Shown here: positions 10,073 to 15,367 of the stretch, piece after piece
Numbering within the stretch: the stretch's first letter is position 1
Layout of the letters: every line of letters starts with the position of its first letter
NCBI GenBank assembly: GCA_046290465.1
Contig: JBKAGP010000001.1
Span: forward strand, 3,744,001 to 3,808,000
DNA length: 64,000 nucleotides
Reading direction: 5' to 3'
Source of the DNA: Planctomycetota bacterium
Lineage (GTDB): Bacteria; Planctomycetota; UBA1135; UBA2386
Translations under genes and position numbers: made by a program
The notes under the pieces: model-generated
What the model saw: the letters and a program-made list of their open reading frames with translations, nothing else
Databases searched by the model: none
What the model was told of the DNA's origin: nothing

Positions 10073-10858
10073 TCAGGCCGACACGATCACCGACAGGATC
10101 GCCTTGCGCGTGTCGAGCCAGCACTGCCACGGGTCCGAGCCGCGCTCGTGCTCGAGCGTCAGGATCGGGATCTGCAGCGTGCGGCCGATCCACGAACCGA
10201 GCGAGCCCGGCGTCGGCGCGATCTTGTCCGACGGCTTGACCCGGTAGCCGGAGTGCTGCGAGAACAGTTCGGCGTGCTGGACCGCCGGCCCGTCGTAGTT
10301 GATGAAGTGGTCGTTGCGCCAGCTGTGCGCGACAATCACCAGGTGCGGACGTTCGGCGCGCACCAGGTCGTGCAGCGCGCGGGCCTCCGGCTGGTCGAGC
10401 GGCCGCTGGCCGTAGGCGCGACCGGGCAGGAAGTTGCTCGCCGGGTAGTTGCGGTTGAGGTCGATGCCCTGCGCGTTGCCGCGCGTGCCGTGCGCGGTGC
10501 CGTCCGGGTTGACGTCCTCGAGGATCGTCAGCGTCACTTGCTCGAGCGCGCCCGGGAACGCCGCGAACGCGCTCGGCAGCTCCGCGGTCGAGACCGAGCC
10601 TTCGCGTTCGTTGCCGTGGATGCCGCCGACCCAGATCACGCGGCGTGGGCCGTTGCCGATCCGACGGATGCGCAGCGGCCGGCCCTCGCGGCTCTGGCCG
10701 ATCGTCTGCCACGGCGACGGCTGCGCGATCGCGCGCGGCACCGAAGCGTCGGCGACATCGCGCGATGCCGACGAGTCCTGTGCCTTCCAGTCCGCGTTGC
10801 GCGGGTGGAACCCGACACAACCGGTCAACAACGCCGCCACGACGATCACCCACCGCAT
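10073..10858 (-). CDS. M14 zinc peptidase lipoprotein, MpaA (murein tripeptide amidase)-like
   Basis: GGIHGNE, VNPDG, DLNRNY, QPE, AHS, TPGSLGSW and TLE motifs; lipobox LTGC. Confidence 0.8.
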   Translation of the reverse strand: MRWVIVVAALLTGCVGFHPRNADWKAQDSSASRDVADASVPRAIAQPSPWQTIGQSREGRPLRIRRIGNGPRRVIWVGGIHGNEREGSVSTAELPSAFAAFPGALEQVTLTILEDVNPDGTAHGTRGNAQGIDLNRNYPASNFLPGRAYGQRPLDQPEARALHDLVRAERPHLVIVAHSWRNDHFINYDGPAVQHAELFSQHSGYRVKPSDKIAPTPGSLGSWIGRTLQIPILTLEHERGSDPWQCWLDTRKAILSVIVSA

Positions 10859-10927
10859 GGCTGCGAACGATAGCCGACTTCACTCGCGGAGCCATCCTGA
10901 CGATGAGGCAAGCAGCCAGGAACCTGC

Positions 10928-11311
10928 ATGCCCGACCAAGCGACCATCCAGCGCATCGACGCCGCGATCTCGTTCGCCGGCCTGCTGATCCGCGTCGGCG
11001 CCTACGCCGTGGTCGGCGGCTTCGCCAGCCACTACGCGTGCGGCCAGGCGATCCTCACCGGCCTGTTCCTCGGCGACCTCGCCGCCAGCGTGCTCCGGGT
11101 GTTCGTGCAGCCGCGCGAGCACCTGGCGCAGTTCTTCGCCGAACTGCTGGTGCTGGCCGTGGTCTTCCTGTGGGCGCGCGGCGACCTGGTCTGGCCGGCC
11201 GACACGCCGACCCGGGCGATCATCGGGCTGGCCGCGTTCGGGGTTTTTGCCGGGCGCGCGGGAGGAACGACCCTGACCCGGTTCGGGCCGAGCGAAGACG
11301 GCTTCGCGTAG
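10928..11311 (+). CDS. Small membrane protein
   Basis: 127 aa with about 4 hydrophobic segments and coding-like codon usage. Confidence 0.6.
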   Translation: MPDQATIQRIDAAISFAGLLIRVGAYAVVGGFASHYACGQAILTGLFLGDLAASVLRVFVQPREHLAQFFAELLVLAVVFLWARGDLVWPADTPTRAIIGLAAFGVFAGRAGGTTLTRFGPSEDGFA

Positions 11312-11422
11312 CGGGCGACCGCCGGTCGCGTGATCCCTGGGCCGCGGGGTTTTCGTTGGCCGTTCGGCGCCAGACGACGCCGGGTGCAGACCGGGCCCGA
11401 TCCGAGGGCCCGCATTCGCACC

Positions 11423-12177
11423 ATGACCCAATCGCAGACCCCGCTTCCCCTCCTGCGCGACGCGAGCGGCGGCGCCCTGCCGACCACCAACGACGCGGTG
11501 ATGGTCGTCGGCACGCCGGGCAACTGGAGCTTCCCGGTCCGCGAGGGCGAGCCGATCGCGATCCCGCCGTCGGCCAACGGCACCTGGGTCGCCGGCAACG
11601 TCACCGGCACGACCAACGTCAACGCGAACGGCCAACTGCTGTTCAACCAGAGCGCCGACGACGGCACCGGCAGCACCAGCACCGGCGGCGCCTTCAGCGG
11701 CTCGGCCGGCAGCCCGATCTGGTTCGACCACGCGGGCGACTTCGTGTTCCGCCAGTCGATCGACAACAACGTCGAGGCCGCGATCGTCAAGGTGCAAGCG
11801 GCGTGCTGGCGGCGACGCCGAGCACCATCTCCGAGGCGAACGGAGGCACCCAGACGTTTGCGATCGACGCGGGCGCGGCGCACGCCGGAGACCTCTACGC
11901 CGTCATCGGCACGGCCAGCGGCACCACGCCCGGCACCGTCGTGCCGCTCGGCCCGCTGACGATCCCGCTCAACTTCGACGCCTACACCGACCTCACGGTC
12001 GCGCTGTTCAACACGTCGGTGTTCAGCAACACGCTGTCGGTGCTCGACGCCAACGGCCGCGCCACCGCGGCGCTCAACCTGCCGGCCGGCACGCTGCTCC
12101 ACCACGCGGTCGTCGGCCTCGACTTCACGCTGAGCGAGACGTTCGTCAGCGAACCGGCGACGGTCAATATCTTCTAG
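11423..12177 (+). pseudogene. Truncated, frameshifted remnant of a secreted beta-rich protein
   Basis: Coding-like sequence switches frame near 11797 (...AIVKVQ / GVLAATPSTISEANGG...); no signal peptide. Confidence 0.6.
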
Positions 12178-12207
12178 ACCGGCGCCCCCCGGGTGGGATC
12201 GGGTCGG

Positions 12208-12245
12208 CTCGATCTGGCCGACTCGATCTGGCCGACTCGATCTGG
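12208..12245. repeat. Tandem 14-bp repeat CTCGATCTGGCCGA, 2.7 copies
   Basis: Read directly; followed by the hairpin GGGCGGGCG-ATC-CGCCCGCCC. Confidence 0.85.
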
Positions 12246-12316
12246 GCGGGCGATCCGCCCGCCCCACCGCGCGGATACACCCTGGAAACAGCGTGCGCGC
12301 TAGCGTGCAGCGCACG

Positions 12317-13651
12317 ATGCTGATCCAACGACCTCTCGTCGCGCTCGCATGTGGCGCGACCACGCTCTCTCTCGCGACCGCCCAGGGCGCGAACTTCGCC
12401 GCGCCGGTGATGATCCAGGCCGGCGACAAGGTCTGCGGCAAGGGCCGCATGTACCCGTCGCCAGCCGCCTACGACATCGACCGCGACGGCAAGCTCGACC
12501 TCGTCGTCGGCGACCTGCGCGGCCACCTGACCTACGCCCGCCAGACCGGCCCCGGCGCGTTCGCCGCCGAGCAGAAGCTCCAGGACGCCGCCGGCAAGGT
12601 GCTCGACTTCGGCAACTGGTGATGCATCGGCATGAGTCCACAGTTCGTGGACTTCAACGCCGACGGCCACGACGACATCGTCTGCGGCATCTTCGACGGT
12701 TCGCCACACGTCAGCTACTGGGACGCCGAAGCCGGCGGCTTCCTGCAACCGGTCGGCATCCTCGACAAGCAGGGCCAGCGCATCGTGCTGAACGCGTGGT
12801 GGAACTTCGACGCCAAGCAGTGGCAAGACACCGACCGCTGTGACCCGGAGGGCGGCGCGCCGGCCGAGGGCCACCTGACCTCGGCGATCGCGTTCGACTA
12901 CGACCGCGACGGCGACTGGGACCTGGTGCTCGGCGACCACAAGGGCGGCTACGTCTACTTGCGCCGCAACGAGGGCAGCAACGCGGCGCCGAAGTTCGCG
13001 ACCCGCAACGAGCTGGTGATGGCCGCCGGCAAGCCGATGCACGACCCCGGCACCGTCGCGACGATCCGCGCGGTCGACTGGAACGGCGACGGCAAGCTCG
13101 ACCTGATGGTGTCCGGCATGGGCGACCCCTACGGCGAAGGCACCGGCGGCGGCGTCGCGGTCTACCTCGACGAGAGCACCTCGGGCGACAAGAGCTTCGG
13201 CGCCGCGGTGACGCTGATCGAGCCGAGCCCGAAGGGCAGCGTCGGTGAGCCACGCCGGCCGGACGCCGGCCTGCACCCGGAGCCGGTCGACCTCGACGGC
13301 GACGGCGACCTCGACCTGATCGTCGGCGGCTACTCGATGTGGAAGCCGAACGCCCGCGAGCTGAGCGACGCCGAGAAGGCGCGCGCCGAGGAGCTGCAGC
13401 AGAAGCTGAGCGAACTGCGCGCCGAGAGCAGCAAGCTCTACGAGCAGGCGAGCAAGGCCAGGGAAGGCCTGACCGGCGAGGCGGCGCAGCAGGCGTTCGC
13501 GAAGGCCTACGAGCAGATCCGTCCGCAGATGGCCAAGGTGACCAGCCAACTGCAGCCGCTGCAGAAGGAGCTCGACAAGCTGCAGCCGCGGCCGCAGCGG
13601 GTGTCGTTCACGTGGTTCTACGAGAACCTGGCCAAGACCGGGACGCGGTAG
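12317..13651 (+). CDS. Secreted FG-GAP/VCBS repeat protein with in-frame TGA at 12620-12622; candidate selenoprotein of 444 aa with Sec102
   Basis: ORFs 12293-12622 and 12632-13651 are in the same frame, joined by TGA-TGC-ATC-GGC; FG-GAP repeats (DxDxDGxxDLxxG) continue in register across the TGA; only the first part has a signal peptide. Confidence 0.75.
12627..12663 (+). promoter_or_regulatory. Putative bacterial SECIS element
   Basis: TCGGC-A-TGAGTCCAC-AGTTC-GTGGACT(T)CA-AC-GCCGA: stem with bulged U, GU in the apical loop, loop starts 19 nt after the UGA. Confidence 0.7.
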
Positions 13652-13714
13652 TCGGCGGCCAGGTAGTCGGCGGCCCGGTAGTCGACCAGGTAGTCGACGA
13701 CCGGTAGCCGGACC
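13647..13714. repeat. Five degenerate tandem GGTAG(T/C)CG units of 12-15 bp between convergent genes
   Basis: GGTAGTCGGCGGCCA / GGTAGTCGGCGGCCC / GGTAGTCGACCA / GGTAGTCGACGACC / GGTAGCCGGACC. Confidence 0.8.
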
Positions 13715-13715
13715 G

Positions 13716-14720
13716 TCAGATCCCGTAGCGGCACGGGTCCTCGGGATCGATCACGAACGTCGCCATGCTCGTGATCCACGCCGAGCCGGTGATCTCCGGA
13801 ACGACCGCGTCGTGCTCGCCGACCCTGGTGGTCTCGAGCACGCGCGCCCGGAACCGGGTGCCGAGCACGCTGTCGCTGTCGAACCACTCGCCGACGCCGA
13901 GCTCGCCCTTGGCGTGCAGGACCGCGAGCTTGGCCGACGTGCCGGTGCCGCACGGCGAACGGTCGTAGGCGGTGCCCGGGCACAACGTCAGCGAGCGCGC
14001 GCCGGGACGTTCGCCGTCGAGCGGCACGAACAGCTTGATGTGGTCGACGATCTCCTCCTCGCCGACGTCCGGGTGCACGCCGCGGATGCCCTCGCGCACC
14101 ATCGATTCGCGGATCGCGGTCGCCGCCTGCATCAGCACCGGCAGGTGCGCCTTCTCGACCATCAGCCCGAGCTGGTCCGCCTCGACGAACGCAAACCAGT
14201 TGCCGCCGTAGGCGATGTCCGCCGCGATCTTACCGAAGCCGTGCACCGGCACGACGACGCGCTGGCGGTAGAGGAACGACGGCACGTTGGTGATCGTGAC
14301 GCTCCTGGGCCGGCCCGCCTCGACCTCGACCTTGCACTCGACCACGCCGACGGTCGTGTCGAGCCGGATCGTCGTGGTGGGCTCCACCGCCGGCACCATG
14401 CCCATCGCGACCGCCGTGGTCGCCAGGCCGATCGCGCCGTGGCCGCACATGCCGAGGTAGCCGGCATCGTTGACGAACACGACCCCGAGGTCGGCGTTGT
14501 CGCGCGTCGGCGGCAGCAGGTAGGCGACGATGATCGCGTCGTGGCCGCGCGGCTCGAGCACCAGCGCACGGCGCAGATGGTCGTGATCGCGCCGCAGCAC
14601 GTCGCGCTTCTCGGCCATCGTCCTGCCCGGGATCTGCGGCAGGCCGCCGGTTACGACGCGCGTCGGTTCGCCCGCAGTGTGCGAGTCGACCGCCTGGATC
14701 ATCTGCTCGAAGGACAGCAT
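13716..14720 (-). CDS. Proline racemase / 4-hydroxyproline epimerase family
   Basis: DSHTAGEPTR, EPRGH, MCGHG and DRSPCGTG (both catalytic Cys present). Confidence 0.9.
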   Translation of the reverse strand: MLSFEQMIQAVDSHTAGEPTRVVTGGLPQIPGRTMAEKRDVLRRDHDHLRRALVLEPRGHDAIIVAYLLPPTRDNADLGVVFVNDAGYLGMCGHGAIGLATTAVAMGMVPAVEPTTTIRLDTTVGVVECKVEVEAGRPRSVTITNVPSFLYRQRVVVPVHGFGKIAADIAYGGNWFAFVEADQLGLMVEKAHLPVLMQAATAIRESMVREGIRGVHPDVGEEEIVDHIKLFVPLDGERPGARSLTLCPGTAYDRSPCGTGTSAKLAVLHAKGELGVGEWFDSDSVLGTRFRARVLETTRVGEHDAVVPEITGSAWITSMATFVIDPEDPCRYGI

Positions 14721-14743
14721 GCCAGGACGTTAGCATGGCCGAC

Positions 14744-15367
14744 ATGAAGAGAGCCCTGCTGTCCCTCTCCCCTCTGGTCGCCGGCGTCGCGATCGCCGCG
14801 TGGCCGGCGAGCGAATACGACTTCTGCCAGCTGCAGATCACCTACTGGGACCAGAAGCAGGGCATCGTGCGCGACCGCGGCTACCTCGCGGTCGACGAGG
14901 ACACCGGCCGCACCTACAAGACCGGCCCGTGGCTGTCGTGGTTCCAGAACGGCAAGAAGCTCAGCAGCGGCGACTACCGGAACAACCTGCGGCACGGCAC
15001 CTGGACGTTCTGGTTCCAGAGCGGCCAGAAGCGCTCGGAGATGGTGTTCGCCGACGGCCGGCCGACCGGCAAGAGCACCAGCTGGCACCCGAGCGGCCAG
15101 AAGTCCGAAGAGCGCATCTACGGCGAGACCGAGCTGCGCACCGTGCAGTGGCACGAGAACGGCCAGAAGTCGAACGAGGGCGTCATGAAGGGCCAGTTCG
15201 GCTCGGCCAGGATGCACGGCGTCTGGACCCGCTGGTACCCCAACGGCCAGAAGCGCAGCGAGGCGACCTACGACGACGGCAAGCTCGACGGCGTGCAGAC
15301 GTTCTGGGACGAGCAGGGCAACGTCACCAGCAAGACCACCTGGAAGAACGGCGAGCAGATCCAGTAG
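14744..15367 (+). CDS. MORN-variant repeat (YwqK-like) exported protein
   Basis: Repeated WxxNGQKxSE units; signal-like N-terminus. Confidence 0.8.
   Translation: MKRALLSLSPLVAGVAIAAWPASEYDFCQLQITYWDQKQGIVRDRGYLAVDEDTGRTYKTGPWLSWFQNGKKLSSGDYRNNLRHGTWTFWFQSGQKRSEMVFADGRPTGKSTSWHPSGQKSEERIYGETELRTVQWHENGQKSNEGVMKGQFGSARMHGVWTRWYPNGQKRSEATYDDGKLDGVQTFWDEQGNVTSKTTWKNGEQIQ

Follow-up and report, generated by a model that had tools for sequence, protein, structure and literature searches.

The stretch under study (hereafter the window) comprises 64,000 nucleotides of a Planctomycetota bacterium, positions 3,744,001 to 3,808,000 of contig JBKAGP010000001.1, and contains at 12317..13651 of its forward strand a gene interrupted by a single in-frame TGA. 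The results indicate that this UGA encodes selenocysteine (Sec) and that the gene is a genuine selenoprotein gene, a reading to which we assign a probability of about 0.93. The features on which it depends are the following.

12317..13651, plus strand: whole selenoprotein gene, 444 codons including Sec102; stop codon TAG at 13649-13651.
12620..12622, plus strand: UGA read as selenocysteine (U102); TGA at this one column in 50 of 50 relatives, Cys in the Cys forms.
12623..12625, plus strand: Cys103, vicinal partner of Sec; Cys in 49 of 50 aligned relatives.
12633..12656, plus strand: selenocysteine insertion sequence (SECIS) hairpin; 5' arm 12633-12641, loop AGUUC 12642-12646, 3' arm 12647-12656.
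12627..12663, plus strand: possible lower stem, 12627-12631 with 12659-12663; weakly supported.

Two open reading frames (ORFs), 12317..12622 and 12632..13651, lie in one frame with the TGA at 12620-12622 as their sole separator, as an earlier reading based on the sequence only had proposed. Reading through the TGA yields a product of 444 amino acids, with the junction DFGNW-U-CIGMSPQFVDFNADG. This product matches the Pfam families FG-GAP_3, with 81.7 bits (cut-off 26.9, E = 5.8e-23), and FG-GAP, with 49.6 bits (cut-off 22.1, E = 3.3e-13), and the matched stretch, residues 53-122, spans the TGA. Hence, the FG-GAP register is indeed continuous across the TGA, and the second ATG (12632) begins in mid-repeat, both of which had been claimed beforehand. 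The expectation that annotation would split the gene was also correct: in public protein sets the gene is represented by its 3' part only, in ORFs of approximately 335 amino acids, and in the sets examined the family is everywhere entered as a truncated "VCBS/FG-GAP repeat protein".

A six-frame search was applied to 61 related genomes, and read-through proteins were rebuilt for 30 orthologous loci. All 52 best matches contain an in-frame TGA, and the full-length matches contain one each. The TGA occupies the same alignment column in 30 of 30 orthologues, within the invariant motif NW-U-CIGM[SG][PS]QFVD, and in 20 of 20 further paralogues of 27-50% identity, whose subfamily motifs are VYUCIASSPQ, AGUC[VI]GFGPQ and VWUCTSSTPQ, with U-E found once. 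The TGA does not divide regions of unequal conservation: the mean pairwise identity of the part upstream is 0.58, that of the part downstream likewise 0.58, and both parts show the codon-position pattern of coding sequence. Given that nine of the 30 orthologous genes have TGA as their terminal stop codon, TGA is an ordinary stop in these organisms.

For the wider distribution, the module formed by residues 28-135 was used as the query against 401 phylum genomes drawn evenly, and it matched in 93 of them. By hand count, 120 of the 145 module matches carry one TGA. Among the 25 TGA-less matches, 18 correspond to the following repeat within the same gene, two carry the TGA on inspection, two are true Cys-Cys forms, and three are weak and were not inspected. 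The 80 species-representative loci consist of 44 Sec forms, four Cys-Cys forms and 32 weaker, generic FG-GAP matches; the Sec form is thus found in 44 of 48 family members, and the family is kept about ten to one as Sec over Cys. It is distributed over Planctomycetota, Verrucomicrobiota and Lentisphaerota, with one to a dozen paralogues per genome. The comparison of homologues, which the sequence-only reading had named as a check, therefore finds this column occupied by TGA or, less often, by Cys, between flanks that are equally conserved. A second member was observed in the same genome, outside the window (G000:C1:5535457-5536632, minus strand; L070:1458-2633); it is 392 amino acids long, contains a TGA of its own within the motif VWUCTSSTPQFVD, and has a lipobox-like sequence (LAIASC) at the N-terminus.

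Cys forms were identified by several routes. L071 (TGT TGC) and L072 (TGC TGT) encode Cys-Cys at the dyad, and the four Cys-Cys forms among the species representatives (L114, L133, L135 and L137) are labelled Rikenellaceae, Candidatus Foliamicus, Prevotella and Novipirellula rosea JCM 17759; the motif is WCCIG in the Cys form versus WUCIG in the Sec form. A profile search over 1.84 billion representatives was also conducted, and its best 150 matches were sorted. These include 106 giant multi-repeat FG-GAP proteins, which inflate the totals of that search, and 44 single-stretch family matches. Of the latter, 36 are ORFs that begin exactly behind the TGA column, at profile positions 101-110, and eight are full-length: six with Cys-Cys (P0153, P0193, P0202, P0222, P0225 and P0248), one with His-Cys (P0170) and one with Trp-Ser (P0212). 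The Cys forms are single ORFs of 410-608 amino acids. Sec without an adjacent Cys also occurs, with Glu in L053 (G048:C116, NWUEVGAS) and Asp in L124 (PGUDIGFC), and generic FG-GAP repeats have small residues, e.g., Ala-Ala, at the place of the dyad. Six candidates from a search with the N-terminal region, P0122-P0127, were rejected as family members, being generic multi-repeat FG-GAP proteins with repeat-level likeness only; one of them, P0123, has Cys-Cys at the aligned place.

The stem-loop described directly 3' of the TGA in the sequence-only reading is real in its core, its AGUUC loop and its 19-nt spacing, whereas the outer TCGGC/GCCGA stem is not conserved. The core comprises 7 bp, 12635-12641 with 12647-12653 (GUCCAC/GUGGAC), the stem has 7-9 bp, 19 nt separate the UGA from the apical loop, and the 5-nt loop has G at position 2, followed by U. 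The 28-nt hairpin piece folds with a minimum free energy (MFE) of -11.4 kcal/mol and a z-score of -3.55, and none of 200 shuffles is as good. In PMC13188914, the consensus for bacterial SECIS (bSECIS) elements is a loop of 3-9 nt with G in the first two loop positions, an upper stem of 4-16 bp, 16-37 nt from UGA to loop, and an MFE of at most -7.5 kcal/mol. The present hairpin falls within every one of these published limits, which agrees with the SelB-type geometry attributed to it earlier. The outer pairing (TCGGC/GCCGA) forms in this gene, has 72.7% of cells paired across 49 distinct sequences, and is not predicted by RNAalifold.

Comparative evidence for the hairpin was obtained from the 50-sequence alignment, in which 96.5% of the core helix cells are paired and the AGUU of the loop AGUUN is kept in 50 of 50 sequences; one further member has the loop GGGUC and an intact stem. 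Compensatory changes are present in three of the seven core pairs (AU in 39 sequences, GC in 9 and GU in 1; CG in 46 and UA in 3; AU in 33, GC in 6 and GU in 3). None of 500 shuffles attains the covariation score, slid controls do not exceed 52.8% pairing versus 86.9%, and RNAalifold independently predicts the same hairpin. In several of the compensatory changes, a silent substitution in a Pro codon goes together with the replacement of Val by Ala, which leaves RNA pairing as the only explanation. The DNA 3' of the TGA is nearly frozen in 30 orthologues that are otherwise 40-75% identical. Within a genome of 70% G+C, Ser107 is AGT in 25 of 25 sequences and Pro108 is CCA in 24 of 25, whereas TCG and CCG/CCC are the codons at the remaining conserved Ser and Pro columns. 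The normalised entropy of conserved degenerate codons is 0.335 in the hairpin region versus 0.606 elsewhere (8 versus 94 columns, p = 0.005), and the third-position difference is 0.204 at the hairpin versus 0.465-0.485. The hairpin is absent in both Cys forms inspected (L071 and L072). Folding and covariation, also suggested as a check, thus find the hairpin kept with compensatory changes in TGA-bearing homologues and lost in Cys forms.

A few observations weigh against the Sec reading. The fold of the 70-nt context is unexceptional (z = -1.44, with 17 of 200 shuffles as good), an Rfam scan of the whole window at gathering scores gave no matches, and no RNA run is among the 24 public runs listed for the sequence; the DNA runs that contain it are from marine, algal and coral habitats. 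In addition, the invariant peptide CIGMSPQFVD accounts for part of the nucleotide conservation after the UGA; yet neither the choice of the AGT and CCA codons nor the joint Pro-synonymous and Val-to-Ala changes are explicable by an invariant peptide.

The source genome (6.59 Mb, one contig, 70.2% G+C) contains all four components of the Sec machinery whose presence the sequence-only reading had proposed to verify: selA (453 bits), selB (354 bits), tRNA-Sec (72.8 bits) and selD, all above curated cut-offs. The selD gene is itself Sec-encoded, with SSAG-U-AAK and one in-frame TGA, and its post-UGA hairpin has no clear loop in common with the present one; it lies directly beside selA (G000:C1:1309619-1311945, minus strand; L001/L010). 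In a hand comparison, in which related genomes are not independent, selA was found in 89 of the 93 phylum genomes with a family match versus 290 of 401 overall. The four matched genomes without selA are G122, G395 and two with weak, TGA-less matches. G122 has the TGA form, consists of 410 contigs and is 90% complete, and is the only TGA-carrying genome in which selA was not found; G395 has the Cys form in one contig, is 99% complete and has no selA. The share of 290 in 401 genomes is very high for a bacterial phylum, and suggests large, under-annotated selenoproteomes.

The sequence itself was compared with contigs from four other public runs that span the site. These contigs present 0 to 10 differences each, none of them listed between 12584 and 12825, and the TGA and the hairpin are unchanged. 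As a separate observation, contig depth jumps 20- to 40-fold in all four runs at 13279-13327, the fifth Asp-rich loop (GACCTCGACGGCGACGGCGACCTCGAC), where many loose ends and joints are found; this motif is common to very many FG-GAP genes of other organisms in metagenomes.

The structure of the protein was modelled with AlphaFold2 on the 50-sequence alignment, with Cys in place of Sec. The model presents a pLDDT of 92.0, a pTM of 0.88, and one confident fold across the TGA, with a beta-propeller at approximately residues 30-345, helices at 351-382 and 387-422, and a last strand at 427-435. The corresponding protein features are the following.

12317..12382, plus strand: predicted signal peptide, residues 1-22, judged by eye; likely cleavage after ATA.
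12473..12499, plus strand: calcium-type loop 1, D53-D61, DIDRDGKLD; D53 and D57 invariant in 50 sequences; FG-GAP Pfam match.
12650..12676, plus strand: calcium-type loop 2, D112-D120, DFNADGHDD; D112, D116, G117 and D120 invariant.
12896..12922, plus strand: calcium-type loop 3, D194-D202; D194, D198 and D202 invariant.
13076..13102, plus strand: calcium-type loop 4, D254-D262; D254, D258 and D262 invariant.
13289..13315, plus strand: calcium-type loop 5, D325-D333; D325 and D329 invariant.
13367..13582, plus strand: long antiparallel helical hairpin, residues 351-422; helices 351-382 and 387-422, pLDDT 96-98.
13595..13621, plus strand: final beta-strand, residues 427-435, RVSFTWFYE; strand 427-435 in the model, SF.W.YEN kept in relatives.

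The N-terminus is hydrophobic and signal-peptide-like (MLIQRPLVALACGATTLSLATA followed by QG) in 30 of 30 orthologues, as judged by eye; sequence identity in this region is low (0.23), and residues 1-20 have low pLDDT. The claim that only the first part has a signal peptide is in keeping with this, and the 3' part alone would be without both it and blade 1. Calcium-type loop 2 directly follows the Sec-Cys loop and overlaps the 3' arm of the RNA hairpin. The helical hairpin has low sequence identity (0.29), and matches only coiled-coil-type models in Pfam and NCBIfam, below threshold.

In comparison with known structures, the best Foldseek matches are CRTAC1 (9etn_A) and the integrin alpha propellers, with low TM-scores (approximately 0.30 to integrin alpha). 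A structure search independent of Foldseek places five-bladed propellers first: the glycoside hydrolase GH62 4pvi_A is matched with Z = 18.2 and an rmsd of 3.8 Å over 273 aligned residues, and the best whole-fold matches are the five-bladed GH62, GH43 and GH32 propellers, with Z from 18.2 to 13.4. Since these alignments extend to model residues 437-444, the last strand closes the propeller in the model. The predicted architecture is therefore a five-bladed FG-GAP propeller with five Asp-rich calcium-type loops; with five such loops and five-bladed best matches, it is not the seven-bladed, integrin-like one. Accordingly, of the exported calcium-blade propeller of 444 residues envisaged in the sequence-only reading, the single confident fold and the Asp-rich loops stand, with five blades in the model. 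Seven residues separate Sec102-Cys103 from the first, inner strand of blade 2. The dyad is thus in the loop preceding that strand, which is a loop that the integrin-type FG-GAP topology presumably places on the top face near the central axis.

The main indication of function comes from gene fusions. DsbD_N is the periplasmic domain that passes electrons from DsbD to its clients. A domain scan covered 12 of the 44 single-stretch family matches (the eight full-length ones and four of the longer), and DsbD_N was found above cut-off at the C-terminus of P0249 and P0258, whose ORFs are cut at the TGA column, and in two Cys-Cys forms, at the C-terminus of P0202 and the N-terminus of P0193. The Sec form L082, of 575 amino acids, also has a C-terminal DsbD_N, with 46.8 bits (cut-off 25); its called ORF, P0129, is 28-30% identical to P0249 and to P0258. 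In total, five distinct relatives carry the fusion, four C-terminally and one N-terminally, and the C-x4-C pair is kept in all five. Apart from L082, these relatives came from the profile search; a word search for further DsbD_N-fused homologues returned only the query's own cluster. In the source genome, a single frame encodes a DsbD containing both DsbD_N and DsbD_TM, and two more ORFs contain DsbD_N. Given the fusions and the presence of DsbD in the genome, we consider it most likely, at roughly even odds, that the Sec-Cys dyad serves as a redox centre and is returned to its reduced state by the DsbD pathway. The sequence-only reading had offered "redox or metal-binding", and the fusions in relatives would tilt that choice towards redox. 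A further fusion architecture is seen in P0148, a family member of 719 amino acids cut at the TGA column, whose additional C-terminal region gives a match of squalene-hopene-cyclase-C type (31.3 bits).

The course of events that we propose is as follows. SelB with Sec-tRNA(Sec) would bind the hairpin at 12633-12656 while the ribosome is at the UGA at 12620-12622, and Sec would be inserted. The 444-residue precursor would be exported via the Sec translocon and lose its signal peptide, and the mature protein would fold as a five-bladed FG-GAP propeller with five Asp-rich calcium-type loops, closed by the last strand as it returns after the long helical hairpin. The dyad may then alternate between a selenol/thiol state and a selenylsulfide closed into an eight-membered ring. 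Its substrate would sit in the cup of the propeller, and the electrons that restore the reduced dyad would come from a periplasmic relay of the DsbD type. The decoding mechanism is the standard one. Computation established the conservation of the UGA, the SECIS, the presence of the Sec machinery, the existence of Cys homologues and the fold; the function is what we infer. Our fuller proposal, which is put forward tentatively and at somewhat less than even odds, is that the family represents a new class of selenoenzyme acting outside the cytoplasm, built as a five-bladed calcium propeller with Sec-Cys at its mouth and supplied with electrons by DsbD. It would be both the first propeller selenoenzyme and the first selenoprotein client of DsbD, and Sec may be kept in it about ten to one because an oxidising compartment would over-oxidise a thiol.

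Several results weigh against the redox step. The DsbD_N fusions are in relatives and not in the present gene, and no conserved neighbour gene was found beyond the genus: neighbours are shared within the genus only (9 of 30 loci), and Pfam on 40 flanking ORFs of 17 diverse members revealed no recurring theme, many of these ORFs being probably spurious in DNA of 70% G+C. In the U-E and U-D variants Sec is retained although its neighbour is not Cys, and the His-Cys and Trp-Ser variants exist as well. Moreover, adjacent Cys and Sec in the catalogued bacterial selenoproteins are often found in metal-handling proteins, according to PMC13188914.

This last point leads to the main alternative, namely that the protein is a real selenoprotein whose Sec-Cys is a soft metal or metalloid site (Hg, Cu(I), Cd, As or Se) in a periplasmic scavenger, chaperone or sensor, which we regard as rather unlikely. 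In the catalogue of PMC13188914 the CU and UC motifs occur mainly in metal-handling families (MerB-like SaoL, HgcA, MbdU and the CopZ-like 2Fe-2S proteins), the residue next to Sec in the U-E and U-D variants could still be a second ligand by its type, and L086 adjoins a heavy-metal P-type ATPase with an HMA domain. However, this pump neighbour was seen in only one of the 17 members inspected, with no recurring theme among the others, no conserved His or further Cys was found across the 50 aligned members, and the recurrent fusion partner is a thiol-disulfide relay domain rather than a metal-binding one. The redox-centre and metal-site readings are not mutually exclusive, given that DsbD-type relays also serve copper-resistance reductases.

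The remaining alternatives dispute Sec itself. The locus could hold two genes, encoding a secreted 101-residue peptide that ends at the UGA and a cytoplasmic 339-residue FG-GAP protein starting at ATG 12632. This ATG exists and gene callers use it everywhere, and the 36 of 44 single-stretch family matches among the best 150 that begin at profile positions 101-110 follow the same division. Yet the ATG is located inside an FG-GAP repeat (the Pfam stretch 53-122), the 3' part alone lacks blade 1 and the signal peptide, a confident fold is obtained only for the undivided chain, and the Cys forms are single ORFs of 410-608 amino acids, which renders two genes very improbable. Equally improbable is that the UGA is read through as Trp, Cys or Gly by a reassigned code or near-cognate decoding, as the single Trp-Ser and His-Cys relatives at the dyad might be taken to suggest: TGA ends nine of the 30 orthologous genes and is hence not reassigned, a dedicated hairpin stands at canonical spacing alongside a full Sec machinery, and of the TGA-carrying genomes only G122 is without selA, while the Cys-form genome G395 has none. 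A nonsense mutation or assembly error in a fresh pseudogene, to which the split into two ORFs under translation table 11 and the like public gene calls could point, is the least probable explanation, and is refuted by the same TGA in 50 of 50 relatives down to 27% identity (identities of 27-75% exclude copies of a single sequence), by conservation of 0.58 and 0.58 on both sides, and by the unchanged site in the contigs of four other runs.

The Sec reading can be further assessed against known systems. Like the SelB/bSECIS genes of the E. coli fdhF type, the present gene has an in-frame UGA, a downstream hairpin inside the ORF with a loop G then U, a spacing within 16-37 nt, and selA, selB, selD and tRNA-Sec in the genome. 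It differs in that the protein is neither a formate dehydrogenase nor a thioredoxin-fold enzyme, and in that the AGUUN loop and the stem are family-specific and co-encoded with the invariant peptide PQ[FL][VA]D. With the FG-GAP/VCBS propellers (the integrin alpha head, CRTAC1 9etn_A, PF13517/PF01839), it shares above-cut-off repeats, DxDxDG loops and the best Foldseek matches, but has five blades rather than seven in the model, a helical hairpin before the closing strand, and the Sec-Cys dyad. The thioredoxin-fold redox selenoproteins have UxxC or CxxU, whereas here U and C are adjacent in a propeller fold. Mammalian thioredoxin reductase has a vicinal Gly-Cys-Sec-Gly redox centre, and shares with the present protein adjacent Sec and Cys with a possible eight-membered selenylsulfide ring; the order here is Sec-Cys, in an internal propeller loop, with neither a flexible C-terminal tail nor a flavoprotein domain. 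Concerning the clients of DsbD (DsbC, DsbG and CcmG; the N-terminal domain of DsbD is PF11412), the possible link consists of the five relatives fused to DsbD_N and of DsbD in the genome. The known clients are thioredoxin-fold proteins, whereas the present protein is a propeller, and we know of no propeller client or selenoprotein client of DsbD.

Regarding previously described selenoproteins, one earlier trace is in Kim et al. 2016 (PMC4807772), whose Table S9 presents FG-GAP/ASPIC-UnbV selenoprotein candidates in the planctomycetes P1 and P2. These are likewise planctomycete FG-GAP proteins entered as two genes split at a TGA, and three of four have a bSECISearch match. By their description in that paper, on which this comparison is based, they contain an ASPIC/UnbV domain and their closest match has Gly at the site, whereas the present protein has Cys homologues and gave no ASPIC/UnbV match in the Pfam scan of its 444 residues. 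A fifth, "hypothetical" P1/P2 candidate with a Rhodopirellula Cys homologue (PMC4807772) might be a member of the present family. SaoL, HgcA, MbdU, KCU-star and the CopZ-like proteins (PMC13188914) share Sec beside Cys, but they belong to unrelated families with other folds, and there is no FG-GAP propeller among them. Table 1 of PMC13188914, a 2026 catalogue of 119 prokaryotic selenoprotein families, has no PF13517/PF01839, FG-GAP or VCBS entry, and the NCBIfam scan of the 444-residue protein matched no selenoprotein model, giving sub-threshold coiled-coil matches only. This agrees with the sequence-only reading, which did not recognise a classic selenoprotein family. Full-text literature searches found no paper on an FG-GAP/VCBS or beta-propeller selenoprotein.

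The family is thus large, uncatalogued, exported and five-bladed in its modelled FG-GAP fold, and was barely documented before. The bacterial selenoproteins known so far are mostly enzymes of the cytoplasm, with a thioredoxin fold or a molybdopterin cofactor, and the propeller fold usually serves binding rather than catalysis, whereas here Sec is in an exported, predicted calcium-binding propeller; its overwhelming retention over Cys is the reverse of most selenoprotein families. Because the public entries are truncated, the selenoproteomes of these phyla are larger than current figures suggest, and thousands of annotations would be put right by a curated model. The recurrent DsbD_N fusion provides a first testable idea of the role of selenium, and the Cys-form relative in the cultured strain Novipirellula rosea JCM 17759 provides a starting point at the bench.

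As for the surroundings of the gene, the long upstream ORFs at 10645-12177 (plus strand) and 11032-12450 (minus strand) have no Pfam match, no Shine-Dalgarno-like or sigma-70-like site was found upstream of ATG 12317, and promoter and terminator scans found nothing. A GC-rich 12-nt near-repeat or palindrome (GCGTGCGCGCTAGCGTGCAGCGCACG) at 12290-12313 ends three bases before this ATG. Short tandem repeats flank the gene, with a 14-nt unit repeated 3.5 times at 12197-12245 upstream and a 15-nt unit (GGTAGTCGGCGGCCA) repeated 2.5-4.6 times at 13647-13715 downstream, where it overlaps the stop codon. Further downstream are a convergent proline racemase family gene at 13716-14720 on the minus strand (PF05544, E = 2.1e-113) and a MORN-repeat protein at 14735-15367 on the plus strand (PF07661).

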